A stretch of DNA of 48,740 bases, from the IMG/VR virus record IMGVR_UViG_3300034025_000003; one strand, 5' to 3'. Positions 23,053-35,226 of this stretch are shown here, piece by piece. The stretch's first letter is position 1. Every line of letters begins with the position of its first letter. This DNA is from a virus. The translations under genes were made by a program, and so were the position numbers. The notes under the pieces are model-generated. The model was not told where the DNA came from and made no database searches. It saw nothing but the letters and a program-made list of their open reading frames with translations.

Positions 23053-23223
23053 TCAAAGCCTCCAATTTTCGATCACAAGAAGCTCTGGCTTTGGGGCGCG
23101 CCTGCTACACATGTAAGTGCGTGTGATAGTGTTGTAGGAATCTACATGCCAGTCAAGATCAAGACTGGCGAACTTACCCCTATAAACTTCAATAGTTTCA
23201 AGTCCATCCGAATTGATCGTCAC
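23053..23223 (-). CDS. WRL-tail small protein A (…PELLVIENWRL)
   Basis: GTG at 23223 is preceded by AGGAG. The ORF ends in VIENWRL-TGA and overlaps the end of the primase-helicase gene by 26 nt. The track start is at 23274. Confidence 0.5.
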   Translation of the reverse strand: MTINSDGLETIEVYRGKFASLDLDWHVDSYNTITRTYMCSRRAPKPELLVIENWRL

Positions 23224-24835
23224 GTTTTGTTTCTCCTGCTTCGAAAGCGATAACTTCCTCGGGATCGAGTTCAACCATGCGTCCTGTCTTACCGTTGTAG
23301 TGCAAATACGAAGCTGGTCCTGTCATACCACTGAACCTATTCTTTTCGACGACGGTTTTGGTGACGTTGCGTCGATAAGGATCAGTTGCTGTCTTGTCAC
23401 GTTCCAGTCGAATAACGATGTTTGCTACTTGCTCAACACCGGCTGTGCCTCGCACGAGTCCTGCTCGATTTTGATGGATAACGCAGATAAGAGCAATGTT
23501 TAGCTCCATGCAAAGTGTTTTAAGCTTGGTACTAATCTCGTCTAGCTGTTTACGCTCATCACCGGATTGATCGGAAACAATGATAGAAAGATGATCCACA
23601 ACAACATACTTACATCCAAGAGCGTGCATGTGACGAACCTTATCAAGGACCGCGTCGACGGTGTTCGACCCAAAATGGTCCCAAATAACAACCCGATCGG
23701 TATTGATAACAGCGTCATAAGCTGCCCGGAGCTCGTCAGTCGTCCGCTCAGTGTCAGGTAGATGATAGGGCTTTGAGTTATGAACAGACATAAGTCCCAA
23801 GGCTGTATCGTGGTTCGGCTCTTCCAGATGAAGGAAGCCAACCCCGTAACCCTTCTCAATAAGCTCTTTGTTGACAAGCAAAGAGTGCTCGATTTCTTTG
23901 ATGTAAGAAGTCTTACCAACGCCTGTTGGTGCATGAACGAGGACAAATTCTGAAAGTCGAAGACCATACGTAAGCTTATTTGTTTCTTCAAACGGTAGCG
24001 GAACAGTGAAGTGGTTCGGACGATTAATGATCGTGTCCCACATTTGCGTACCGAGTATCAAGCCATCAGGCTGATAAGGAACAGCCTTCCACCACTCGTT
24101 TACGAACTGTTTTCCACGACCGTTTAGAAGATATTCATTCGCATCCTTAAACTCTCGAAGAGTTAGTATCTTAGCTTTTCCGGGTTTGAACAGTCCAGCA
24201 ACTTTGATGGCTGCTTCTTGTCCCGGAAAATGCTTTTCCCCTGTCAACGGATTAATCTTAGCTTCGTCACGATCAAAACAAACGATGATGGATTCAAAGC
24301 TATTCAGATACTCGTAGTTGCGTTTACAATCTTCGATCGCAGAGGACGCGCCATGAACGCTTACGGCAGGGAAGGGGGAGATTTGAAACGCTGCCATTGC
24401 ATCGTCCTGTCCTTCCAAGATAGTAATAGCTTTTGCGGAACCTGGGCTAAATGTGTGTTGTCCGAACAGATCAAGGTCTCGTCCTTGTCCCTCGTAGAGA
24501 AACTTTTTACCTGTTTTTCGTATCTTGTTTCCGACGTGAACGCCGTTAGCGAAGACAGGATAGCGAGCTTCAACATCAGACGATGATAGATCAACGCTAA
24601 CGCCGAACCGCGAGATTGTTTCTCGATCAATGCCTCGTTCCTTGAACGCATGGAAAACGTTTGTAAGCGGAGCAAACTCCGAAGATAGTTTCTTAACTGG
24701 AATCTCCTCCTCTTGTCGGCCATTCGATGGCGGAAACTTTTTATCACACGAAAAACATTTTCCCCAGCCTTTCTCATTGATGCTATAAGCATCACTAGAG
24801 ATACCACAGGGACAAGCTTGATGAGTTGTTTTCAA
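23198..24835 (-). CDS. Bifunctional primase-helicase (T7 gp4-like)
   Basis: N-terminal Zn finger (CPCG...CFSC), a TOPRIM region, a DnaB-like Walker A (HAPTGVGKTS) and Walker B (VVVDHLS). TTG start. Confidence 0.9.
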   Translation of the reverse strand: MKTTHQACPCGISSDAYSINEKGWGKCFSCDKKFPPSNGRQEEEIPVKKLSSEFAPLTNVFHAFKERGIDRETISRFGVSVDLSSSDVEARYPVFANGVHVGNKIRKTGKKFLYEGQGRDLDLFGQHTFSPGSAKAITILEGQDDAMAAFQISPFPAVSVHGASSAIEDCKRNYEYLNSFESIIVCFDRDEAKINPLTGEKHFPGQEAAIKVAGLFKPGKAKILTLREFKDANEYLLNGRGKQFVNEWWKAVPYQPDGLILGTQMWDTIINRPNHFTVPLPFEETNKLTYGLRLSEFVLVHAPTGVGKTSYIKEIEHSLLVNKELIEKGYGVGFLHLEEPNHDTALGLMSVHNSKPYHLPDTERTTDELRAAYDAVINTDRVVIWDHFGSNTVDAVLDKVRHMHALGCKYVVVDHLSIIVSDQSGDERKQLDEISTKLKTLCMELNIALICVIHQNRAGLVRGTAGVEQVANIVIRLERDKTATDPYRRNVTKTVVEKNRFSGMTGPASYLHYNGKTGRMVELDPEEVIAFEAGETKRDDQFGWT

Positions 24836-24893
24836 CTTCTACCTTTATCAGTCTACTGTTTAACGTTTAGCTTCTAACAAACTTCTTAAGATT

Positions 24894-24922
24894 ATTATAC
24901 ACAGTTTTGTAGAGGTTGTCAA
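24894..24922 (-). promoter_or_regulatory. Consensus sigma70-type promoter upstream of the primase-helicase gene
   Basis: The minus strand reads GCTTGACA-ACCTCTACAAAACTGTG-TATAAT, a 17-nt spacer with a TGn extended -10. Confidence 0.75.
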
Positions 24923-24930
24923 GCGCTATT

Positions 24931-25176
24931 TTACAGCCTCCAATCCTCGATAAGGGAAGACTCTTTCAACTTAATTCCATACAAAACAAAGTCACTGTCT
25001 CTCAATTCCCGACGTTCGTTCCTATCGGGCATATTGTTCCAATAAAGAACGTAAGGATATCGATCTTTTTGTATCGCCTTGTTTTGGAAAACAGTCAGTT
25101 CGGAACCAGGAGTCCCCCGGTGATGATAAAACCAAAGATAGTCTTCTAGAACAACAGTATCGCCGACTTTAATCAT
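24931..25176 (-). CDS. WRL-tail small protein B (…SSLIEDWRL), SH3-like N-terminus
   Basis: 81 aa, MIKVGDTVVL..., with a GGAGGA RBS. It ends in IEDWRL-TAA. No gene follows for about 90 nt; only the promoter lies there. Confidence 0.7.
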   Translation of the reverse strand: MIKVGDTVVLEDYLWFYHHRGTPGSELTVFQNKAIQKDRYPYVLYWNNMPDRNERRELRDSDFVLYGIKLKESSLIEDWRL

Positions 25177-25372
25177 ATCGTCCTCCGAAATCTTCAGTGT
25201 TTATTGACAGCAACTCTTCAGCTGTAGGTTCAGCTTCTTCGCTGCTTTCTTCAGGCTCTTCGCCAAAGACAGACGCAATTACTTCAAGACAAGTACCACA
25301 AGGGTCTATGTCTCCGTGATCGCTGTTGAAACTAAAGCTTGCCATTTCACGATCACAAATGTGACACTTCAT
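25169..25372 (-). CDS. Small zinc-ribbon / acidic protein
   Basis: MKCHICDREM...DPCGTCLEV followed by an acidic tail. Confidence 0.55.
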   Translation of the reverse strand: MKCHICDREMASFSFNSDHGDIDPCGTCLEVIASVFGEEPEESSEEAEPTAEELLSINTEDFGGRYD

Positions 25373-25511
25373 GCTCGTCGATCCAACTCAAGAAGAAGTT
25401 CAATAAAGCCATTAAAAATAGGGGCTATCAGATTTTTCCTGTGCTTTAAATAAAAGATTTGCTTGTCTTTTAGAAAGGTTCGTTGATTGTCTGTTAATCG
25501 CATTTGGGAGT

Positions 25512-25760
25512 TTATCCTTCTATTTCTGGTTCAGAGGAACATTCAATGACTAGACGTGCGCCACACGCTAGAAGAGAGGCATGAGGGGAATAGACAAGAG
25601 TAGCCCCATCAGGAAGCCTAACACGGTTCCCGTATATAGGCCGTCCGCTAAACCCTCGTTGTATGCGGATTGGAGGTTCGGGTCGTTCGGCACGAATGTT
25701 TCTCCGGATGATGTGTTGATTAACGTGGACGTACCACTTACGATTGTCCATTATAACCAT
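25512..25760 (-). CDS. Hypothetical protein (start uncertain)
   Basis: The ORF contains WYVHVNQHIIRRNIRAERPEPPIRIQRG...LLACGARLVIE. I could not assign a function. Confidence 0.5.
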   Translation of the reverse strand: MVIMDNRKWYVHVNQHIIRRNIRAERPEPPIRIQRGFSGRPIYGNRVRLPDGATLVYSPHASLLACGARLVIECSSEPEIEG

Positions 25761-25965
25761 TTCCGTAAGTTTCGTCAAGCCCTAACTCACGTTCGAGTGG
25801 ACGCAATTCACGAAGAGCTGCCTCACGGAATCCTTTTGGTCGCGAGAAGTCTTTAACATTTGCTCGCAGTGTACGAATCTTTTCACAGGCTGCGTGGTAA
25901 GACGTCTCCTGCGCCAATCGCTGAAATTCAGAAGGCGAGCGAGTAAAGAAACGGTCAGTCATCAT
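25738..25965 (-). CDS. Hypothetical protein
   Basis: ATG at 25965 overlaps the TGA of WRL protein C (CTATGATG). Confidence 0.5.
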   Translation of the reverse strand: MMTDRFFTRSPSEFQRLAQETSYHAACEKIRTLRANVKDFSRPKGFREAALRELRPLERELGLDETYGNGYNGQS

Positions 25966-26204
25966 AGTCTCCAATTTTCGATTGTTACTGGTGATACAAC
26001 TTCACAGAAGACATCCCACGCAGCAGGTTGTTTATTTCTGAAAAGACCAGAGTTAACTCCCTCAAGATAAATGATAGCGTTAGCTCTTGTCCCTCCTCTT
26101 AACACCATTTGTCTAGATTCATCAATGCTTACGATTACGCCCTCCTGACCAGCGTAGATACTAGGTGCAAGACATCGAACAGTTTGCCCAACAACAAAAT
26201 TCAT
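25962..26204 (-). CDS. WRL-tail small protein C (…SPVTIENWRL), SH3-like N-terminus
   Basis: ATG at 26204 overlaps the stop of D (ATGA). MNFVVGQTVRCL...; ends in IENWRL-TGA. Confidence 0.7.
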   Translation of the reverse strand: MNFVVGQTVRCLAPSIYAGQEGVIVSIDESRQMVLRGGTRANAIIYLEGVNSGLFRNKQPAAWDVFCEVVSPVTIENWRL

Positions 26205-26443
26205 AGTCTCCACTCTTCGATTGTAGACGGGCCTTTGTTAATGATGTTCCCGTATTTATGCGACCAATGAGGATGAGGGGTACCATCTATTTTTACGATC
26301 AGAAAATCATTAAACTCGTTAATGTCAACAACAACGCAAGGAATTCCATCGTAACTATTAAGAAAAATTTCCTGTGATCTCTTTATTGCTCTCGAAGGAT
26401 TATTTTCGAACTCTATCTCAGCGTCCCAATCAATTGATTTCAT
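26201..26443 (-). CDS. WRL-tail small protein D (…GPSTIEEWRL)
   Basis: ATG at 26443 overlaps the end of the ATP-grasp gene. MKSIDWDAEIEF...; ends in IEEWRL-TGA. Confidence 0.65.
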   Translation of the reverse strand: MKSIDWDAEIEFENNPSRAIKRSQEIFLNSYDGIPCVVVDINEFNDFLIVKIDGTPHPHWSHKYGNIINKGPSTIEEWRL

Positions 26444-27182
26444 TTGAGATAGCCTGAAACGCTTGGGCGTAATCTTGGACTGTCTGACCCTCGAGACCGC
26501 ACGCTGTGTTAACTTCGAGAACATAGGCCATCTGTCGACGATCATTCCAAATAACGTCCACCCCGCCAAAATCAAGGCCAAGCGAATCAACAGCGGCAAT
26601 TGAATGCTCAAGGACACAATTAGGAGCGTCAACGCCATCGCGAGCGAATACAAAACCGTTAGCGTGATTACGTATCTGCCAGTTTGGGTCATCTACATCA
26701 AGCCTTCTCGCCTTGCGCTGCACAGCCACAACTCGACCTCGGACAACGTGTACTCGGTATTCGTCTTGCTTCGGTACGTAGCGGACGTAGAGCGGCGCGT
26801 TAACAAGCTCTTGTGCGCTATTCGCAACAACGATGCCAACACCGCTATGGCCGTTAAGAACAGTACGACAGAATACAGGATACGCTTCAGCAGGAATTTC
26901 TTCTTGCAACTGCCAAAAATCAGGGACATTTACGCCAGCCTCCTGCATTCTGTTGAATGCCCAAAGTTTGTTTGCGGCAGTAGCTACCGCATCAGAAGTA
27001 TTGAGGACTATTCCGCCTCGACCGTAAGGTACAGACGAACCCCAATTGATAATCAGATCATCGCGACGAGGAATGAACGTCGAACCTTGCAGTCGCAAAA
27101 CGCGTCCACGTGGGAGAGCGCCCGCAAGGGCTCGTGCTGATCGTGAACCTTGCTTATACGGATAGACGCGAAAACGAGGCAC
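26430..27182 (-). CDS. ATP-grasp ligase (RimK-like, phage type)
   Basis: NKLWAFNRMQEAGVNVPDF, GHSGVGIVV, EYRVHVVRGRVVAVQRK, WQIRNHANGFVF and LGLDFGGVDVIW...YVLEVNTACGL are typical ATP-grasp blocks. The GTG start overlaps the TAG of E. Confidence 0.85.
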   Translation of the reverse strand: MPRFRVYPYKQGSRSARALAGALPRGRVLRLQGSTFIPRRDDLIINWGSSVPYGRGGIVLNTSDAVATAANKLWAFNRMQEAGVNVPDFWQLQEEIPAEAYPVFCRTVLNGHSGVGIVVANSAQELVNAPLYVRYVPKQDEYRVHVVRGRVVAVQRKARRLDVDDPNWQIRNHANGFVFARDGVDAPNCVLEHSIAAVDSLGLDFGGVDVIWNDRRQMAYVLEVNTACGLEGQTVQDYAQAFQAISNEIN

Positions 27183-27406
27183 TACAATCTCCAATATTCA
27201 ATGACGTGACTGATTCTCTCAACAGAGCCAGTATTCCATTCTCCTCCGTTACCACTGACGGAGGTGTCTCCGACACGAGTCCAAGGCGATCGATCCCAAA
27301 TTACTTGGAAGTATCCCTTACGTCTAGCAATTGCTTCGACAGTGCCGACACAACCGTGAAAGTCTGTTCCATTAGTGCATCGAATACGATCACCTACTTG
27401 AATCAC
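27182..27406 (-). CDS. WRL-tail small protein E (…SHVIEYWRL), SH3-like N-terminus
   Basis: GTG at 27406 overlaps the TGA of F. (M)IQVGDRIRC...; ends in IEYWRL-TAG. Confidence 0.65.
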   Translation of the reverse strand: MIQVGDRIRCTNGTDFHGCVGTVEAIARRKGYFQVIWDRSPWTRVGDTSVSGNGGEWNTGSVERISHVIEYWRL

Positions 27407-27669
27407 AAGCGCCAATCCTCTACAACAGTTGGACTAAACTTGTTTGAAATTCTTCCAAACTTAGCCTGACAAGTGTCCGTAACAATTATTCCGTCAGCTG
27501 AGCAAAAGAAATAACGAATTAGCGAGTCAGACTTACGGTAGTTTACATCTTCAAGAATCCAGTGGTTTTGGTTATACGGGCTTATAGAGCTTTCATGAGG
27601 ATGATGTAACTTCGACAGTTTAATCGGAAGCCCGGTTTCACTTTCTAGTGGCAACGAAAAGTCGATCAT
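27403..27669 (-). CDS. WRL-tail small protein F (…SPTVVEDWRL)
   Basis: ATG at 27669 overlaps the TGA of the amidoligase (ATGA). It ends in GAG GAT TGG CGC TTG TGA. Confidence 0.65.
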   Translation of the reverse strand: MIDFSLPLESETGLPIKLSKLHHPHESSISPYNQNHWILEDVNYRKSDSLIRYFFCSADGIIVTDTCQAKFGRISNKFSPTVVEDWRL

Positions 27670-28652
27670 CCGAAAGCATCCTCTGCTTCCCACGCCATCG
27701 GAGGAACATTATCTAAAAAGATTCTCTTGATCTTAGGCTTCAACGCTCCAAAAGGATTAGGAACGTAAACCTTTTCAATTTCCGGCAGAACCGAAGCCCA
27801 CGGAATGACGTAAAGGATGGGCTGAATACGACGATAACCATCTCGAACAAGCTGACCCGCGTTGTCAACAGCTAGCAACTCGTCAAGGATCGGAAGCCCT
27901 GCAAAAACAGTCTCGAGGAACCCGATACCACCAAGCGTAGAAAAGTCGACGCCGATGATAGATGGGTCGCTGTACGTTCCTGCGTGAGTTTTAATACGAT
28001 CGATAGCTTCGATCCACTTTTCAAACTCACCGACGTTCTCAACAGCTCGCATCAAACGAATTTCGAGCGTGCCAAGTGTGCGCAAGCAAGCAGGATTAAG
28101 GGCCAAATAACGCATGTCTCGACTGTACGAAAAATCACCAGTCTTGAAGCCACGAATCCATCCGTCAACAGCGTAGGAGCTGTCACTCATACGGAGGCTA
28201 AACAGATTGCCTGCTCGAGTCGGACCACACCACGCAGCAAGAACGTCTTCGAACATTCCCCACAACGCCACAAAAGCTGCCATCGTGTTAACTTTGACGG
28301 AACGCATGTTAACGTGAACATGCGTCGAAGTGCGGTAGCTGTTGTTAAGTCGGGTGCCGGTGAAAGTGAAAGTATCGAAGAGCGAGCTGACGTTAGCGAT
28401 AGCTTGAGCCTTTGACACAGCGCCGTCAGTAACGTATTCCGAACCGCCTCGTAGACTGTTGTCGTCGTGACGAACCCAATTCGGAATGTTACCCGGAAGG
28501 CCAGTACCCTCAACTTCTATTTCGATACCGTAGTCACCTACTTGAGTTGTGTAGTCGAAACCAACGCCGCGACACAACTCAATTCCGTACGCCTTCGGTT
28601 CGAAAGACGACTTGCCCTTTTTATTTTTGAAAACACTCAAAACATTTGACAT
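27666..28652 (-). CDS. Amidoligase (Amidoligase_2 / glutamine-synthetase-like COOH-NH2 ligase)
   Basis: YGIEIEVEG, HDDNSLRGGSEYVT, TSTHVHVNM and GTLEIRLM match the conserved blocks of the putative amidoligase family. Confidence 0.8.
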   Translation of the reverse strand: MSNVLSVFKNKKGKSSFEPKAYGIELCRGVGFDYTTQVGDYGIEIEVEGTGLPGNIPNWVRHDDNSLRGGSEYVTDGAVSKAQAIANVSSLFDTFTFTGTRLNNSYRTSTHVHVNMRSVKVNTMAAFVALWGMFEDVLAAWCGPTRAGNLFSLRMSDSSYAVDGWIRGFKTGDFSYSRDMRYLALNPACLRTLGTLEIRLMRAVENVGEFEKWIEAIDRIKTHAGTYSDPSIIGVDFSTLGGIGFLETVFAGLPILDELLAVDNAGQLVRDGYRRIQPILYVIPWASVLPEIEKVYVPNPFGALKPKIKRIFLDNVPPMAWEAEDAFG

Positions 28653-28653
28653 C

Positions 28654-28938
28654 TCACAACCTCCAATTCTCAATTACAGCTGGGCCAACGTTTACAATAC
28701 GTCGGTAATTTGGGTTACCTTCCGAATACCCAAACTGCCCGCCAATTTCGTTAAAAAACCCCAAGTCCATAGCTTTGTAATAAGGGTCTGATCGTCTGGC
28801 AATGTCGTACTGACTCCTTACAAAAATTCTGCGGCCGTACTTTTTTTTACGGTGAGGGCTCGTGGCCGCAAGAACTTTGTAGATTTCACAAGGAAGTCCG
28901 TCGTCGTACTCAATCGGACGATCTATATCGATGAGCAT
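28654..28938 (-). CDS. WRL-tail small protein G (…GPAVIENWRL)
   Basis: 94 aa. The ATG overlaps the upstream TAA (TAATG). It ends in IENWRL-TGA. Confidence 0.7.
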   Translation of the reverse strand: MLIDIDRPIEYDDGLPCEIYKVLAATSPHRKKKYGRRIFVRSQYDIARRSDPYYKAMDLGFFNEIGGQFGYSEGNPNYRRIVNVGPAVIENWRL

Positions 28939-29561
28939 TACATAATCTCCGGATTATCTGGCAAATTCGGACATTCGATAATAGATTCCATCAGATATTG
29001 CCGATCGTTGTTGAGATACAACTGATTACGGAAAATCACGCCAACTTCTTCGTGATTGTTGAACAGTGTAAGGCCGCCACTTTCAGACATCGCGATAGCA
29101 AAACTACGCGAAACTGCGATTGACGATCCGGGAACAATGTGTTCGAGTGTGTCAGACCAAGAAGGATAAACGTTAGCAACCATTTCTACGAACGCAGGAG
29201 ACTTAGTCACCACATCGAAAGGAATGCGAACGCTGCCCTTCAAGGTCGAACAATTGAAATTCTGATTACAGAGACCTTGGCGCTGCTGTCGAGCCGGGAG
29301 TCGTTGAGCAAAGCTAACGTTGAACCCGTATTCACGACTGAAATAGTTCACAAAACCCAGAGGAATCGTCTGGAATCTATTAAATCGTGGATCAAGAAGA
29401 TTAGCAGTTTGCTCTTGACCATCGAAAGGGTGGGGAACGAACCCCACCTCAATCGCATTCGGACCTCGACCACGCAGGGTTGTAACCGTAACTGGCAAAC
29501 CGTCGAAGCCAACTACTGTATCCAGCAACCGTCGTTCTGCTTCTTCACGTGTATCGTACAT
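28938..29561 (-). CDS. Hypothetical protein of the ligase island
   Basis: 207-aa ORF with a GAGGTG RBS. No motif recognised. Confidence 0.6.
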   Translation of the reverse strand: MYDTREEAERRLLDTVVGFDGLPVTVTTLRGRGPNAIEVGFVPHPFDGQEQTANLLDPRFNRFQTIPLGFVNYFSREYGFNVSFAQRLPARQQRQGLCNQNFNCSTLKGSVRIPFDVVTKSPAFVEMVANVYPSWSDTLEHIVPGSSIAVSRSFAIAMSESGGLTLFNNHEEVGVIFRNQLYLNNDRQYLMESIIECPNLPDNPEIM

Positions 29562-29625
29562 TTACTGGCACCTCATTAGATTCTCAAGAAGACAACGAAT
29601 ATAGTTTATCTCTCCTCGAGTCACG

Positions 29626-30549
29626 TTACGCCTTCTTCTTAGTCTTCGACGCGGTGGCCTTAACTTCTTCCTTTTCAGCCTTAATTCGTTCGGCTTCTTC
29701 AGGGCTCACTTCTTCGATCTTCGGCAACGTAATCCCGAGGGTCGAAAGGTAAGTCTTTGCGTAAGACACATCACCCGAATTGATGATAGATTGAATGTCT
29801 ACGCCCTCCCTTTCAGCTTTAAGATACTGCGGAGTAGTCGACTGCATATCCTTGACAGCACGACTTACGAGGCCATGAATAAAACGCCGGAGAGGCGTGT
29901 TCAAAATCCAAGCGTTTGAAGGTGTGCGATATTCGACACCGTAGCTCTTCGGCCGATAAGCACCCGCCTTGCCGTACAGCTTACGACGTTCTGTGTCGCT
30001 ATCGATGCACGTCATGCCGAGACCGACGAATACGTCAAGATTACGAATGAACGCGCGGCAAACTTCGACGTGATCCGGGTGATCGACCGGAATGTCAGCG
30101 CCCCAGCCTACGTGAATGTGACCAGCTGCCGACCGCTGTCCGCTGTCTCCGTCAGGGCGAGGATTGGGCTCCGAAGGATCGATGCTGTACGCGCAGTAAT
30201 CAGGGTCACAGCCGAGTTCCTTAGCCTCTTCAGGAAGGCTCTCGTAGTAGTCCTTGTCGAAGAACACAGTCGGAGAAGGTTCGATCTGAAGATTAGACGG
30301 AATAATCGAACGCAGCTCCGACAGCACGCCAACAATGTTGTTGTTGAAGGCCGAGAAATCATCGATCGGAACAGGGTTCGTGTTGAATTCAGCGGCCAAT
30401 CCATCCGGCTGAACAGCGCCTGCGCTAACCTTATGCGGCGCTTTCTTCGAGCCCGGAACAAGGTCGTGTGCACTGACGGGCTTGCCAGTCGCGCGATCCT
30501 TGACGAAGATTTCTGGATCGCAACCAATCGTGAATTTGAAAGTAGACAT
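29626..30549 (-). CDS. COOH-NH2 ligase (phiEco32-like type 2 family)
   Basis: FTIGCDPEIFV...VSAHDLVPGSKKAPHKV..GAVQPDGLAAEFNTNPV and AAGHIHVGW resemble the phage COOH-NH2 ligase family of the GCS/GS superfamily. Confidence 0.7.
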   Translation of the reverse strand: MSTFKFTIGCDPEIFVKDRATGKPVSAHDLVPGSKKAPHKVSAGAVQPDGLAAEFNTNPVPIDDFSAFNNNIVGVLSELRSIIPSNLQIEPSPTVFFDKDYYESLPEEAKELGCDPDYCAYSIDPSEPNPRPDGDSGQRSAAGHIHVGWGADIPVDHPDHVEVCRAFIRNLDVFVGLGMTCIDSDTERRKLYGKAGAYRPKSYGVEYRTPSNAWILNTPLRRFIHGLVSRAVKDMQSTTPQYLKAEREGVDIQSIINSGDVSYAKTYLSTLGITLPKIEEVSPEEAERIKAEKEEVKATASKTKKKA

Positions 30550-31814
30550 TACGCTGCAAGCTCCTTATTAGCGTTGTTAGTAAAACAAGTTGAACAGAGA
30601 AGGGCTGAAGTCGACAACCATTTGCCGATACTTCCAGTCAATGCGTCGTTGTAGTCGACGTCTTTTTGGCAGAACGAACAACATTGGTCCGTCTTTGCGT
30701 ACTCTCCGGCGTCGATTACGTCGCCTCGAAAGTCGAGTAGCTCATTATCAAACTTTTGCGGCAATGCGCGCGAGACTTCCGAGCCATTTCTTTTGCTGTC
30801 GTGCGCCAAGCTGAGCAAAGGCTTCTTCGCTCGGATAACCGCTTGGGAGACTATCTTGTCCTTTTCGGACTCGCCAGCTAAGGGCGATTGTGCTGTAGAC
30901 TTCGACTCGACCGCTGTGGGCGTGATAACCTGCGGGTTTTGCGGGAGTGCCTTCACGGCGTTCCCTACGTCTCCCTTTTCCCCAGGAATGTTCGGATCGT
31001 CGTCCAGATTGTCCTCCCACCCCCACGGTGACCGGTACGGGTTGTGAAAATTTACGGCAGACTTAATTGCCACCCCTCCTTCGAGCTTTTCGTTTCGAAC
31101 GAACGTGAAAACGTTTTTCTTGTCGAGAGGATCGATAGTTACAGACCACCAACTATCCGTCTCAAGGGGCGCAACGAAAAACTCTGGTTCGTCTTTGCCT
31201 GCTTGATTCGCGAGCTTTTGACCGTGCTTTCCGCAAGCCACGGTAATCATCCACGTTTCAGACGCCCAAAAGACTTTACGATAGTCTTCGCTGAAGGCGT
31301 AGAACAACGTGCGTTGATCGTTGCGAAGGAAGTTCAGCGTGTCGTCAGCAGTATCGTGCCAGACAAGAGCGTAAGCTCCTTCGACCTGTTCGATAGTGTC
31401 ACGAACGCCGATTTCAGCGAAAGATGAGTACAGTCGTTGACTGTCGATTGCGCCAGTTTCGCCTCCCGGCAACTTGTAGTAGTTACGAAGTGTTCCGTTA
31501 TGAACACCTGAAAACGTTCCGTAGTTAAACGGATGCGCTGTTTGCTTTGTGATGTTGCCGACAGTTGCTTTACGAGTATGGCCAATCATGGCCTTCGTCG
31601 TACCAGCAGTGATTATGTCGTAAGACTTTCGATCGTACAAGTCGAAAGGATTTCCAATATCCTTTACGATGCGAACATCGCCTGTCGGCAATCGTGGAAT
31701 AAACGCGACACCTGTAGAATCTCGACCACGAACAGTCGAGAAGACAAGCATCATTTCAAGAATATCTTTATCGCGGTAGCTGAGGTCCCCAGCGCAACCC
31801 ACTAAACCACACAA
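30549..31814 (-). CDS. Class II (Ntn) glutamine amidotransferase with a C-terminal Cys-rich region
   Basis: A TTG start is followed by Cys (M)CGLVGC. RGRDSTGVA, GHTRKATVG and HPF..GVHNGTL are also present. The C-terminus carries CCSFC...CSTC. Confidence 0.8.
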   Translation of the reverse strand: MCGLVGCAGDLSYRDKDILEMMLVFSTVRGRDSTGVAFIPRLPTGDVRIVKDIGNPFDLYDRKSYDIITAGTTKAMIGHTRKATVGNITKQTAHPFNYGTFSGVHNGTLRNYYKLPGGETGAIDSQRLYSSFAEIGVRDTIEQVEGAYALVWHDTADDTLNFLRNDQRTLFYAFSEDYRKVFWASETWMITVACGKHGQKLANQAGKDEPEFFVAPLETDSWWSVTIDPLDKKNVFTFVRNEKLEGGVAIKSAVNFHNPYRSPWGWEDNLDDDPNIPGEKGDVGNAVKALPQNPQVITPTAVESKSTAQSPLAGESEKDKIVSQAVIRAKKPLLSLAHDSKRNGSEVSRALPQKFDNELLDFRGDVIDAGEYAKTDQCCSFCQKDVDYNDALTGSIGKWLSTSALLCSTCFTNNANKELAA

Positions 31815-31967
31815 TTGAGGTCTCCTAGAAAATTAAACATTGACAACTTAAGCCAAACGAAGGATACACGAAGAATAATGTTGCCGTTATTTGTTATGAA
31901 TGCAACACGATTAAATCATACGGAACAGCTCAACGTCATCGTCAAATTGCTGATTGGATGGATTCTT

Positions 31968-32051
31968 TTACACGGACACCGCAAGAACAAGAAGAGCGAT
32001 AGAACTGACGATGCCGATACCTGCGCCGACGCTACAACTAAAATTCTTCAT
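31968..32051 (-). CDS. Possible 27-aa hydrophobic peptide
   Basis: ATG overlaps the TAA of the class I GATase (TAATG). MKNFSCSVGAGIGIVSSIALLVLAVSV. Confidence 0.25.
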   Translation of the reverse strand: MKNFSCSVGAGIGIVSSIALLVLAVSV

Positions 32052-32845
32052 TACTTGATTTCCTTCTTGATGAATTCGACTTCACTGATAGGCTTCAGAT
32101 TGTCAGCAAAGAATCCGTTCTCGACAAAGTTCTTGACTTCGTTGAGACACCACATCGTGTATTCTGGATATCCGCCGACTTCCGGATGACCCTGCACAGC
32201 AATCGCACGAATGTTCGGATAAACTGCTGCTTCGAGATCGCGATGAGCGTTGCTTTCGAGCGTCTTATTCTGATTGCTGTAGCGAGCGCCAAGGCCAGCT
32301 TGAGCGGCAAACGCCAGCGGAAACGTTGCTTCGTTCGGAATACACATTTGGTGATGCATCGAAGAGACCCACCAATCAGGTTTTGAACCGTCAGACAACT
32401 CAATCTTGTGTCGCCAACCGTGGTTGTGAACGTCTTGCCAGAGCTTACCACCGTTCATGACGTGCAGGAACTGCATGCCACGACAGATGCCAAACATAGG
32501 CTTGTCGAGCTCAATAGCTTTCGCAAACACGTCAGCTTCGCGAGCGTCGCGAGCTACGTTGAAGTACGTACCCTTAAGCGGCTTTTCACCGTACAACGAC
32601 GGATCGACGTCTTCGCCACCAGAGAAACAAAGAAGATCAGCTTCTTCGATCGACTTAGCTTTCGTGCAGTTAGCCTTAGCAAACATCTCGACGATGCCTG
32701 AAAGAAAGCAGCTACCGACGATAAACACTTTGTATCCGAGCTTCGGATAGACGTCGTCGATGCTATGTTCGCGGTTAGTCTTCGAGTTTTCGTCAGGAAG
32801 AAGACCTAGCTCTCGAAGACGTTCGGCTGTGACAGGAGTGTTCAT
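32051..32845 (-). CDS. Class I glutamine amidotransferase-like / peptidase C26 (gamma-glutamyl hydrolase type)
   Basis: PMFGICRGMQFLHV supplies the nucleophile elbow and AVQGHPE supplies the His-Glu of the triad. Confidence 0.8.
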   Translation of the reverse strand: MNTPVTAERLRELGLLPDENSKTNREHSIDDVYPKLGYKVFIVGSCFLSGIVEMFAKANCTKAKSIEEADLLCFSGGEDVDPSLYGEKPLKGTYFNVARDAREADVFAKAIELDKPMFGICRGMQFLHVMNGGKLWQDVHNHGWRHKIELSDGSKPDWWVSSMHHQMCIPNEATFPLAFAAQAGLGARYSNQNKTLESNAHRDLEAAVYPNIRAIAVQGHPEVGGYPEYTMWCLNEVKNFVENGFFADNLKPISEVEFIKKEIK

Positions 32846-33321
32846 GCTTTTACCTCGATGTGTACGTAGTTAAATTCGATTCCGCCGTCAGGCTTGAAAG
32901 GGTTCGGCAGCTTGCCGGGGTCCTTAGGCATACGCGCCATCGGTTTTGGATGTTCAAACTGCGTAAGAGTCGACGTGCCGGGATACTCAAACGGAGGCTT
33001 GACGTACTTAACGCCGCGCATTTCACAGCGAACGAAAAGATTTACCCAGCTATTGTGCTGACCGTTGTTTGTGCGACCAGCAAGAACAAAGCCCAATCCC
33101 GCGAGAATTTCGAGCATCTTCGGATTAGTCTTGCATTGAGAATCGTTCAGCGTGCAGACGACCATCTGATTGCCTGTCGGGCGACTCTTGCCGCTGTCGT
33201 CGATGCCCTGAATCTTTTGCACCATCTCTCGAAACGTCGAGTCGGTGGCAGTTGTGCCGAGTGGGAAATTGTAGATGATCGAAGCGCCGCAACAATTCGG
33301 CATAGCGGTCATTGTAACCAT
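32842..33321 (-). CDS. CCG-motif protein, paralogue 3
   Basis: MVTMTAMPNCCGASIIYNF...ILAGLGFVLAGRTNNGQHNSWVNLFV. It shares both motif blocks with 34186..34737 and 34744..35226. Confidence 0.7.
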   Translation of the reverse strand: MVTMTAMPNCCGASIIYNFPLGTTATDSTFREMVQKIQGIDDSGKSRPTGNQMVVCTLNDSQCKTNPKMLEILAGLGFVLAGRTNNGQHNSWVNLFVRCEMRGVKYVKPPFEYPGTSTLTQFEHPKPMARMPKDPGKLPNPFKPDGGIEFNYVHIEVKA

Positions 33322-33331
33322 GTTGAAATCC

Positions 33332-33469
33332 TCATAGGTTTGAGGGGTTGATGATAGATTGCTGTTTCAGCAGCGTTTCAGCTAGTTGACCTACTGTCAG
33401 TCCTTTGCGTTCGTTGGGTGAAAGACCGAAGTAAGCAGAACGAGCACGGCGATAAGTTGCGATATTCAT
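33332..33469 (-). CDS. Possible 45-aa ORF
   Basis: ATG overlaps the TGA of H (ATGA). MNIATYRRARSAYFGLSPNERKGLTVGQLAETLLKQ... Confidence 0.35.
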   Translation of the reverse strand: MNIATYRRARSAYFGLSPNERKGLTVGQLAETLLKQQSIINPSNL

Positions 33470-33702
33470 AGCCTCCAATCCTCTATGATTGTCTCTCTAG
33501 AAACTAAAACTGGTGTCCAAGAACCCTTATCAGGGGCGTCCAAGTCGAACATAGCTATTTCGTTTAGCCCTCTAAATACAGGAGCATCACCAGTCGCGTA
33601 AACAATTTTATTGATTGGAAGGATTCTAGTTATCGTCCATTCGCCGTACTCTCTCTTAGCTGCTCCGCTAGCAAAAGTACAGACGTCTCCTACTTGAAAC
33701 AT
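33466..33702 (-). CDS. WRL-tail small protein H (…RETIIEDWRL), SH3-like N-terminus
   Basis: ATG at 33702 overlaps the TGA of I (TGATG). MFQVGDVCTF...; ends in IEDWRL-TGA. Confidence 0.7.
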   Translation of the reverse strand: MFQVGDVCTFASGAAKREYGEWTITRILPINKIVYATGDAPVFRGLNEIAMFDLDAPDKGSWTPVLVSRETIIEDWRL

Positions 33703-33926
33703 CAAAGTCTCCAATCTTCTATTTCAATTTCGATCGGGAAGATAAGAGTCCTGCAACCATCCTGTGATTTGCCTGATTTGTTCACAGTGATGAAGCACGG
33801 CTGTGCGCTAGTCTTAGCTCGACCCTCGTAAACTGCCGGGAAACGATGATCGAGACTGCCGAGTCCGACTAGCTTCCAAGTTCTGTTTGATTGGTCAAGA
33901 GCTTCGAGTGGATACCGTTGGCTCAC
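33702..33926 (-). CDS. WRL-tail small protein I (…IEIEDWRL)
   Basis: GTG at 33926 overlaps the TGA of J, the same junction geometry as F/E. It ends in GAA GAT TGG AGA CTT TGA. Confidence 0.6.
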   Translation of the reverse strand: MSQRYPLEALDQSNRTWKLVGLGSLDHRFPAVYEGRAKTSAQPCFITVNKSGKSQDGCRTLIFPIEIEIEDWRL

Positions 33927-34186
33927 AACCGCCAATCCTCTATAACTCTTAGCCCTATGCGTCGGATAGGAAGCTTAAGAGGATAGATGGTGTCCCAGAC
34001 AGAGCCATCACTAGCGTTCCAAACTCCTTTACCGACACCGACGGTTACGAAAGAAGTATCTGGTTTTGTACACCCAACAATTAAAGACAGACCGTCTATT
34101 TCAAAGTCTTCGCAGTAGTCGGAGCAAACGTAAATTAGCCTGCCGTCTTCTAGATCAAACGGGCCTTCGTTCCAATGCAGGTTCAT
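33923..34186 (-). CDS. WRL-tail small protein J (…LRVIEDWRL)
   Basis: ATG at 34186 overlaps the TGA of CCG paralogue 2 (TGATG). It ends in GAG GAT TGG CGG TTG TGA. Confidence 0.65.
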   Translation of the reverse strand: MNLHWNEGPFDLEDGRLIYVCSDYCEDFEIDGLSLIVGCTKPDTSFVTVGVGKGVWNASDGSVWDTIYPLKLPIRRIGLRVIEDWRL

Positions 34187-34737
34187 CAGACATTCTCCGT
34201 CCACCGTGTTGTGCCGTCACTGTAGACGCTGAGACAATCAATTCGTTGGGCACGCGGAGCAGCAGTTTCTGCCTGTTCGCGAGAAGGCCAGCCAGCAGCC
34301 GAACGCCCACTTGTACGATAAACGTTGTAGAACGCTGAATGAACGATGGTTCGTATGTCGTACGTGATGAACTCTTGTCGTAGAACAGTCCGGCGGCCAA
34401 CCCAATCCGGATGTTCAACAGACATTGAGTTAGTTACGCCGTTACGATGGAAAACGTAGCATACGCGACCGCTGTTTGCGTTCAGAAATCGATTTACGAG
34501 GACAAAACCCAACTCGTTAAGAAGAGTTAGCCAACCACCTTCTGGCGACAGGATGAAGCCATCCATCTGACGTTGCGAGAGAACCGCTTCAAGAAGACGA
34601 TTTTGTGTAGGTGTGACGTTCGGCTGTCTGTCGTGTTGGGCGACGAGTTGTCGGACTTCGTCGTGGGTTGAGTGATCGAACCCCCAAAGGGTGTATATTC
34701 CACAACAACCGCCGCCATGCGCTGTAATTTGAACCAC
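34186..34737 (-). CDS. CCG-motif protein, paralogue 2
   Basis: MVQITAHGGGCCGIYTLWGF...LLNELGFVLVNRFLNANSGRVCYVFH. Confidence 0.7.
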   Translation of the reverse strand: MVQITAHGGGCCGIYTLWGFDHSTHDEVRQLVAQHDRQPNVTPTQNRLLEAVLSQRQMDGFILSPEGGWLTLLNELGFVLVNRFLNANSGRVCYVFHRNGVTNSMSVEHPDWVGRRTVLRQEFITYDIRTIVHSAFYNVYRTSGRSAAGWPSREQAETAAPRAQRIDCLSVYSDGTTRWTENV

Positions 34738-34743
34738 GATAGA

Positions 34744-35226
34744 TTATCCTTCAGGTTGTTCGACACCATCAATGAATTCAACGACACGGACAACATTTGG
34801 ACTGGCCGCGTAAGAAGCTGCATCACGACTGTCGAAAGTACCGCGACCAAAACCGTTGCGGTAGAGGTTGCGATAAGTCCGTACAGGTTCCGGCACTGGT
34901 GCCAAGACAGGCGCTTCTTGTTCACGCAGTGTTGCTGCGTCGAAGAAACCGGGTGCGATCAGCTCACGATGGCTGACGAACATGTTGCATCGATTGCCGC
35001 TGTTGACGTTGATCCACGAACAGACGTTGACGTAGAAGAATTCGCGTAGACTTGCTGCTAATTCTTCTACCTGCCAGTCGACGAGAATGAGCACCGTCGC
35101 TTGACCGTGACCTGCGTGCTGGCGGAGAGCGGCTATTTCATCGTCGATGTCGATATCTTCGTCCATAAGAAAGTCGGTCAAGATGTTCGCGCCGCAGCAC
35201 GAAGGAAACTCGTTGAGATCAGCCAT
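34744..35226 (-). CDS. CCG-motif protein, paralogue 1
   Basis: MADLNEFPSCCGANILTDF...LREFFYVNVCSWINVNSGNRCNMFV. Confidence 0.7.
   Translation of the reverse strand: MADLNEFPSCCGANILTDFLMDEDIDIDDEIAALRQHAGHGQATVLILVDWQVEELAASLREFFYVNVCSWINVNSGNRCNMFVSHRELIAPGFFDAATLREQEAPVLAPVPEPVRTYRNLYRNGFGRGTFDSRDAASYAASPNVVRVVEFIDGVEQPEG

Follow-up and report, generated by a model that had tools for sequence, protein, structure and literature searches.

Background

A "peptidoglycan modification cassette" was reported by Duhaime et al. 2017 in the phages RIO-1, phiEco32, 7-11, PA11, tf, MR299-2, LUZ24, PaP3 and CW02 (PMC5498523). That paper credits Hardies et al. 2013 and Iyer et al. 2009 for the cassette, which was first noted in 2009; another report cites Iyer et al. 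2009 for a cell-wall modification blocking superinfection (PMC10580990). In this work, we describe an island of amide-bond enzymes in a phage genome of 48,740 nucleotides (nt), IMG/VR virus record IMGVR_UViG_3300034025_000003 (the window, by which the whole stretch is meant), which is, on the grounds of gene content and order, an additional instance of this conserved phage amidoligase cassette. Interleaved with the island are small open reading frames (ORFs) ending in a common peptide, WRL, and similar arrays of ORFs with common C-termini, here called tails, accompany the cassette in part of its relatives.

An earlier note, made from the letters of the window, had held that such enzyme clusters had been noticed in phages with no substrate assigned to them. 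This is correct: the literature offers a guess, modification of the cell wall or of peptidoglycan (PMC5498523, PMC10580990), and no report of an experimental function or substrate of any cassette member was found in the searchable literature. New here are the tails themselves and the fact that they are associated with the cassette in one direction only. The idea, also put forward in the earlier note, that tails are substrates of the ligases is not required by these findings and is considered possible but improbable.

A conserved six-gene cassette

Klyazma, CVT22, PA11, CW02, RIO-1 and LUZ24, along with about 25 metagenomic loci, share both the gene set and its order, and in all of them it immediately precedes the primase/helicase gene. 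This arrangement was encountered in no fewer than 33 independent loci, indicating that the clustering of these enzymes is not due to chance, and synteny is conserved across Zobellviridae and LUZ24-like phages. The window, with a Zobellviridae-like organization, contains all the components: the PF14395 ligase, an Amidoligase_2-type enzyme, a RimK-like ATP-grasp, a class II glutamine amidotransferase (GATase II) with a non-catalytic C-terminal half, a partner cleaving gamma-glutamyl bonds (C26) and the conserved phrog_11055 gene, lying, as in the known cassette phages, between the COOH-NH2 ligase and the amidoligase. The island also occupies the expected site, immediately upstream of the primase/helicase, in the middle (replication) transcription block.

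Specific differences were found in three respects. The window carries a C26 class I glutamine amidotransferase (GATase I) instead of the gamma-glutamyl cyclotransferase (GGCT) which takes its place in LUZ24 and RIO-1, while CW02 has both; a GGCT-like gene has been described in LUZ24-like phages (PMC3890496). Tail-bearing small ORFs lie in most junctions of the window cassette, with three paralogues of a further family, here named CCG, upstream. Finally, proteins are just about 40-45% identical to those of the named cassette phages: for the COOH-NH2 ligase, identity is 41-45% to Klebsiella phage Klyazma, Citrobacter phage CVT22, Erwinia phage Pecta, Salinivibrio phage CW02 and Pseudomonas phage PA11, and megablast of the island against sequenced phage genomes gave no match.

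All five amide-bond enzymes listed in the earlier note are present on the minus strand where they had been placed (Table 1), with Pfam or PHROG matches and intact catalytic motifs. The Pfam check which it had called for upheld the families, four by direct matches and the amidoligase through PHROG and genes at the same position in other phages; the list itself was incomplete, having overlooked the sixth conserved gene, phrog_11055. The amidoligase, glutamine-synthetase-like by family annotation, has no Pfam match even at E<=5. Genes at the same position do match Amidoligase_2 (PF12224), in PA11 (1.8e-7), CVT22 (1.6e-12) and locus L005 (6e-5), and tblastn ties the window gene to them; the family assignment thus holds by transitivity. 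Similarity of the ATP-grasp to RimK is marginal, its Pfam score of 21.0 bits being exactly the 21-bit gathering cut-off, and its best sequence matches in PDB are RimK and alpha-L-glutamate ligases (E about 5e-3), to which the metal-site motif GVD...EVN..GLEG (D/E/N) can be aligned.

In GATase I, the catalytic Cys can be read from the sequence in GICRGMQ and the His-Glu pair in GHPE; its nearest solved relatives are Lin1909 (PDB, E=2.3e-12) and gamma-glutamyl hydrolases of the PuuD type (PuuD E=1.7e-3). The N-terminal 115 or so amino acids (aa) of GATase II align to PurF and GlmS, with the nucleophile in the MCG start. Its C-terminal extension, described in the earlier note as Cys-rich, is real and consists of a zinc-ribbon-like motif, CxxC...(17-27 aa)...CxxC (window 30549-30700, minus strand), whose four Cys are kept in 11 lineages, from PA11 to Citrovirus; the approximately 200 residues between the Ntn domain and this motif gave no family match. 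Homologues of the COOH-NH2 ligase were found in 319 phage records.

In all the islands examined, the phrog_11055 gene separates the COOH-NH2 ligase from the amidoligase, encoding about 190-220 aa (PA11, CVT22, Klyazma and LUZ24 included). The alignment reveals invariant residues R11, R87, R91, Q95, G96 and E192, and the conserved Arg, Arg, Gln and Glu suggest a putative active or binding site. The AlphaFold2 model of this protein is confident (pLDDT 91.4); Foldseek against PDB found no significant fold match for it (best E=0.02, TM about 0.2).

The translational coupling of the island to its neighbors, also proposed earlier, was confirmed in part. The island genes do overlap adjoining WRL and CCG ORFs, through ATGA, TAATG and GTGA: the GATase I start overlaps the stop of the first CCG gene as ATGA, and, within the island, the COOH-NH2 ligase start overlaps the GATase II stop as TAATG. 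Two island junctions are, however, uncoupled: a gap of 236 nt separates GATase I from GATase II, and one of 64 nt the COOH-NH2 ligase from the phrog_11055 gene. The otherwise non-coding 236-nt gap holds a possible mini-ORF, MKNFSCSVGAGIGIVSSIALLVLAVSV, of 27 strongly hydrophobic aa (31968-32051, minus strand), which would begin within the stop of GATase I (TAATG).

The phage-type COOH-NH2 ligase was also detected in 20 contigs of GTDB metagenome-assembled genomes (L102-L121), labelled as Patescibacteria, Saccharibacteria, Pseudanabaena, Crocinitomix and others. About half of them, including all the longest ones, measure 46-52 kb and are probably phage contigs binned into bacterial genomes; the rest are fragments of at most 31 kb. 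A bacterial chromosomal context for this ligase subfamily was not found among the 20 matches, all of them phage-sized contigs or fragments.

Tails are dual-coded with ribosome-binding sites

Exactly 10 ORFs, among the 591 found in the window, end in WRL; all lie within 23053-34204 of the minus strand, and the second most frequent C-terminal tripeptide occurs twice. The bases encoding the tail hold the Shine-Dalgarno (SD) sequence of the next gene: where the next start overlaps the stop (ATGA or GTGA), it is preceded by GAGGA at 9 nt, and where it comes after the stop, by GGAG at 6-7 nt. The shared C-terminus might thus be a mere by-product of an embedded ribosome-binding site (RBS) read in frame, an explanation fitting the fact that every tail variant has a GGAG, GAGG or GAGGTG, spaced from the following start as an SD would be. 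Codon usage makes it very improbable. In the [IV]-E-x-W-R-L tails, synonymous sites have reached saturation, yet the encoded residues stay constant: Ile is encoded by ATA, ATT or ATC, Glu by GAG or GAA, Arg by AGG, AGA, CGG or CGC and Leu by TTG, CTT, CTA or CTG, and the CGG or CGC used for Arg in two WRL tails destroys GGAG. Accordingly, pN/pS is 0.04-0.09 within the tail versus 0.93 for the four codons upstream.

Other lineages provide the same indication. Among 100 LEN[EDK]* tails, from eight Citrovirus-like loci, GGAG is present in 83 of the 85 coupled to a start, while in 13 of the 15 uncoupled ones GGAG is lost and the peptide is kept, codons having drifted to TTA, CTA or CTT and GAA (Fisher p=1.5e-12). 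Six ORFs of locus L088 end in [CP]EDWS, with Ser encoded by codons of both the AGY and TCN families, and 5 of these 6 tails lie 28-75 nt from the next start. Because the peptide is maintained at saturated synonymous sites, in uncoupled LENx tails and through the EDWS codons, the tail is a genuine peptide motif, dual-coded with an RBS, and the two constraints are separable; the reading of tails as RBS only was rejected on this codon evidence. Tails represent a clear case of dual coding, noted in the window and in L001, L003, L090, L091 and L094-L099, regardless of the cassette, and define an undescribed and expanding family of small phage proteins encoded in the middle operon.

Equivalent arrays with lineage-specific tails were detected in six lineages (LENE/K/D, LLEENV, EDWS, DWL, LDEVFx; Table 1). 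An acidic residue, at a distance of 3-5 positions from the C-terminal end, is kept in every tail variant. The last residue depends on the lineage (L, S, E, K, D or V, or not fixed). Two N-terminal types are recognized among tail ORFs, one, 'MID', with the pattern MID..PLE..DG.P, the other, KOW-like, with M..VGD.V. The tail type follows the genome and not the protein family: 'MID' proteins of the window end in WRL, those of L088 in EDWS and those of L005 in LDEVFx.

We propose that the WRL ORFs may be a separate, lineage-variable plug-in family of small KOW-like and 'MID' proteins. Since the tail codons supply both the SD and the overlapping start for the gene that follows, ORFs of this kind could presumably be inserted at any operon junction, leaving coupling intact. 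Its identity with the SD of the next gene gives the tail a separate reason for its place at gene junctions, and a junction-compatible tail would explain the interleaving with no need of an enzyme-substrate relation. In the Citrovirus-like loci L001, L090, L091 and L097, HNH homing-endonuclease genes are found between cassette genes, showing that island junctions tolerate insertions and appear to be insertion hot spots.

Association of tail arrays with the cassette

Co-occurrence was evaluated in 71 distinct loci of at least 9 kb. Cassette and array are both present in 13 of them, 20 have a cassette without array and 38 neither, while no array was found without a cassette; the association (13/33 versus 0/38) has a Fisher p of 1e-5, a test which ignores phylogeny. 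One extra locus with both cassette and array, L088, falls below the 9 kb limit.

Array-free cassettes include those of PA11, LUZ24, RIO-1, L006-L009 and L013. Some of them belong to close relatives of the window: primase identity is 60% for L006, 58% for L008 and 56% for L009, which are thus nearer to the window than Citrovirus. As 20 of the 33 cassettes are devoid of tail ORFs, the cassette evidently works without tail proteins.

Arrays are, moreover, only partly contained in the island. Just 3 of the 10 WRL ORFs of the window lie inside it, the remainder flanking the primase/helicase gene or sitting upstream. Half of the CVT22 tail ORFs (9 of 18) are inside the island, others adjoin the sigma factor and DNA polymerase genes, and in L005, the closest sampled relative, the array lies wholly outside. 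Arrays, in general, also extend into the replication genes.

Proposed function and rival explanations

By analogy with related enzymes, we lean slightly towards a cassette which forms and trims amide bonds on a small molecule or a peptidoglycan precursor. Three ATP-dependent carboxylate-amine ligases would build at least one amide bond, of the gamma-glutamyl or peptide type, while two amidohydrolase-type enzymes would either supply ammonia for amidation or remove the gamma-glutamyl group. The substrate would be common to diverse hosts, most likely a small amine/carboxylate or a peptidoglycan stem-peptide precursor, with a protein as the next most likely candidate. Gamma-glutamylation is suggested because the pairing of a glutamine-synthetase-like ligase with a C26 or GGCT enzyme mirrors PuuA/PuuD. 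The PuuA/PuuD and Pseudomonas Pau/Spu pathways, which gamma-glutamylate amines, share with the cassette a glutamine-synthetase-like ATP-dependent ligase and a C26 gamma-glutamyl hydrolase, but the cassette lacks their oxidase/dehydrogenase steps, has three ligases versus one and is composed of phage-restricted subfamilies. Amidation is suggested because the pairing of ligase and amidotransferase mirrors MurT/GatD; the likeness to the MurT/GatD and AsnB/LtsA systems of peptidoglycan amidation, a carboxylate-activating ligase combined with a glutamine amidotransferase, is an analogy only, and Pfam detected no Mur-ligase or asparagine-synthetase domain.

Several observations weigh against a small-molecule or peptidoglycan substrate. 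The substrate class is deduced from family analogies; the nearest solved relative of the ATP-grasp, RimK, modifies a protein C-terminus; and the COOH-NH2 ligase subfamily, being found only on phage-sized contigs, offers no bacterial pathway context for a small-molecule role. Furthermore, arrays were seen only in island-bearing genomes and are interleaved with the island in 4 of the 6 array-bearing lineages sampled, as would also be expected if tail proteins were accessory clients of the enzymes.

The earlier note suggested the tail proteins themselves as candidates for what the ligases act on. In this explanation they would be substrates or tags, modified at the invariant Glu side chain or at the C-terminal carboxylate, or else the tail would be a docking motif bringing adaptors to the ligases. 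A survey of homologous islands for tail-like ORFs, named in that note as a test able to overturn the proposal, left it standing, six other lineages carrying analogous tail ORFs. Also in its favor are selection on the tail at the amino-acid level and arrays seen only with the island, to which the acidic residue shared by all variants, the interleaving seen in the window, L088, L106, Citrovirus and CW02, and the kinship of the ATP-grasp to RimK, a protein C-terminal ligase, may be added. Against these stand the co-occurrence statistic, which is not corrected for phylogeny, the 20 array-free islands, close relatives included, and the many tails outside the island, as in L005, in the window and in CVT22, where they reach the region of sigma factor and DNA polymerase. 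Terminal residues, moreover, differ among lineages, unlike what a ligase specific for the C-terminal carboxylate would predict, and features of the Pup-ligase or graspetide type were not found. Pup-PafA/Dop resembles the present case in joining a ligase of glutamine synthetase fold to small proteins with a common C-terminus, but there is no Pfam match to Pup_ligase and no GGQ/GGE terminus, and the tail proteins are folded-domain-like (KOW-like). Graspetide (microviridin-type) ribosomal peptide systems similarly have an ATP-grasp beside several small ORFs sharing an acidic C-terminal motif; tails, however, contain one invariant acidic residue and no conserved Thr/Ser/Lys partner, the match of the ATP-grasp to MdnB (AMdnB) is non-significant (E=0.15) and leader or protease/exporter genes are absent. 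We regard it as quite unlikely that tails are ligase substrates, tags or docking motifs, and give equally little credence to their being recognition tags by which at least 10 small KOW-like/'MID' proteins in each genome would either undergo modification by the cassette or bring targets to it. Because most related cassettes have no tail proteins, these are unlikely to be its primary substrate; they may have a lineage-specific accessory role. If they did act as tags, the phage would encode a system of protein tagging or adaptors for which no counterpart has been described, its tag being dual-coded with an RBS, and, as clients, they would provide the first concrete substrate hypothesis for a widespread cassette. 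The hypothesis is testable, since the cultured phages CVT22, Klyazma, Pecta and CW02 carry both cassette and arrays.

A target among other proteins, of host or phage, is rather unlikely, though less so than one among the tails: the cassette would, for instance, glutamylate or amidate a ribosomal, transcription or replication protein, with two candidate partners, the phrog_11055 protein, which might serve as substrate or scaffold, and the zinc ribbon of GATase II, on which proteins might dock. The RimK-like ATP-grasp would fit such a role, as would the conserved zinc ribbon, the phrog_11055 partner, conserved, non-enzymatic-looking and of unmatched fold, and the embedding of the cassette among replication and transcription genes; protein modification has in fact been proposed for phage ATP-grasp ligases by the Aravind group (PMC4431377). 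The parallel with glutamylation of ribosomal protein S6 by RimK extends to the retained metal-binding motif, but the similarity is marginal, nothing in the RimK system corresponds to the five remaining cassette genes, and WRL tails end in Leu, LENE being the only variant ending in Glu. C26 and GGCT partners, in addition, usually act on small gamma-glutamyl compounds, and the phrog_11055 protein has no conserved acidic C-terminal tail. Hypermodification of phage DNA or nucleotides appears hardly credible. The cassette does adjoin replication genes, and amidoligase and amidotransferase genes co-occur with thymidine-hypermodification clusters, Lee et al. 2021 having reported amidoligase and glutaminotransferase genes, of unknown role, beside those for 5-HMUDK and aGPT-Pplase (PMC8989533). 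Yet no dUMP hydroxymethylase, 5-hmdU kinase (5-HMUDK), aGPT-Pplase or TET/JBP was found among the window ORFs scanned, for which reason this explanation was set aside, and no literature report of hypermodified bases was found for the well-studied cassette phages.

Features of the window and of related loci

Table 1. Cassette genes, CCG-family genes and tail ORFs of the window, and tail types of related phages and loci
Feature	Genome or locus	Position	Strand	Evidence and remarks
CCG-family paralogues	window	34186-34737 and 34744-35226	-	alignment
Three consecutive WRL ORFs upstream of island	window	33923-34186, 33702-33935, 33466-33702	-	tail sequence
CCG-family protein 1	window	32842-33321	-	directly upstream of GATase I; invariant CCG, Q, N, F (alignment)
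GATase I / Peptidase C26 (gamma-glutamyl hydrolase-like)	window	32051-32845	-	Peptidase_C26 E=9.4e-23; GATase E=3.8e-10; phrog_7218
GATase II (class II, Ntn), C-terminal zinc-ribbon-like motif	window	30549-31814	-	GATase_6 E=2.2e-14; N-terminal MCGLVG
COOH-NH2 ligase (type 2, phiEco32-type)	window	29626-30549	-	PF14395 E=2.4e-10; phrog_3815 E=1e-70
Conserved cassette protein phrog_11055	window	28938-29561	-	phrog_11055 E=5.7e-17; same position as PA11 gp006, CVT22 gp57, LUZ24 gp17
WRL ORF, 'MID' family, ...VIENWRL	window	28654-28938	-	between phrog_11055 gene and amidoligase
Amidoligase (Amidoligase_2-type)	window	27666-28652	-	phrog_7469 'amidoligase enzyme' E=7.7e-43
WRL ORF, 'MID' family, ...VVEDWRL	window	27403-27669	-	downstream of amidoligase; homologous to L005 LDEVFx and L088 EDWS proteins
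WRL ORF, KOW-like 'VGD' N-terminus, ...VIEYWRL	window	27182-27406	-	upstream of ATP-grasp
RimK-like ATP-grasp ligase	window	26430-27182	-	Pfam RimK E=2.8e-4; phrog_2599 E=2e-78; GTG start, alternative TTG at 27194
WRL ORF, ...TIEEWRL	window	26201-26443	-	downstream of ATP-grasp
WRL ORF, KOW-like, ...TIENWRL	window	25962-26204	-	weak Pfam KOW match E=5e-3
WRL ORF, ...LIEDWRL	window	24931-25176	-	no coupled downstream gene; consensus sigma-70 promoter next
WRL ORF, ...VIENWRL	window	23053-23274	-	between primase/helicase and DNA polymerase; no coupled downstream gene
Tail IE[DN]WRL	window, L093			
Tail EDWS ([CP]EDWS)	L088	L088:3104-7342		
Tail [ESGA]DW[LM]	L106	L106:1767-12922		
Tail LDEVFx, last residue variable	L005	L005:3163-4780		
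Tail LENE	CVT22, L094, L096, L097			
Tail LENK	Klyazma, L090, L091			
Tail LEND	Pecta, L095			
Tail P..LLEENV	CW02	L098:2-8049		

When the ten WRL ORFs were scanned with Pfam and PHROG, no family was identified apart from the weak KOW match reported in Table 1. For the 'MID' ORF preceding the amidoligase, HMMER against 1.84 billion representatives detected a single homologue, in L093, which is 55% identical, lies at the same position and ends in VIEDWRL; a scan of IMG/VR for the WRL DNA motif gave zero matches. The WRL ORF downstream of the ATP-grasp gene likely starts at the ATG at 26443, encoding 80 aa and overlapping that gene by 14 nt, rather than at 26692, a reading (26201-26692, 163 aa) in which it would share 263 nt with the ATP-grasp gene, in a different frame.

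Proteins of the CCG family feature an N-terminal HGGxCCG, followed by vLn.rQ, LGF and N.NSG. The family was seen only in the window, L005, L008, L013, L102 and L103, always near the cassette. A word-index search for homologues of CCG2 retrieved only the protein itself, and an AlphaFold2 model built from the three paralogues was unreliable (pLDDT 47).

The island belongs to a minus-strand block, spanning approximately 14.2-36.5 kb, which also encodes ribonucleotide reductase (RNR), a metallophosphoesterase, a Cas4-like exonuclease, a gp2.5-like single-stranded DNA-binding protein (SSB), DNA polymerase and the primase/helicase. Upstream of the latter gene, directly after the WRL ORF ending at 24931, a perfect sigma-70 consensus promoter (TTGACA-17-TATAAT) is found at 24894-24922 on the minus strand. 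The sequence GCTTGACA is located shortly upstream of the primase/helicase gene in both L005 (after 12541) and L007 (after 14980). A second promoter match in the window, 11 out of 12, lies at 25750-25778.

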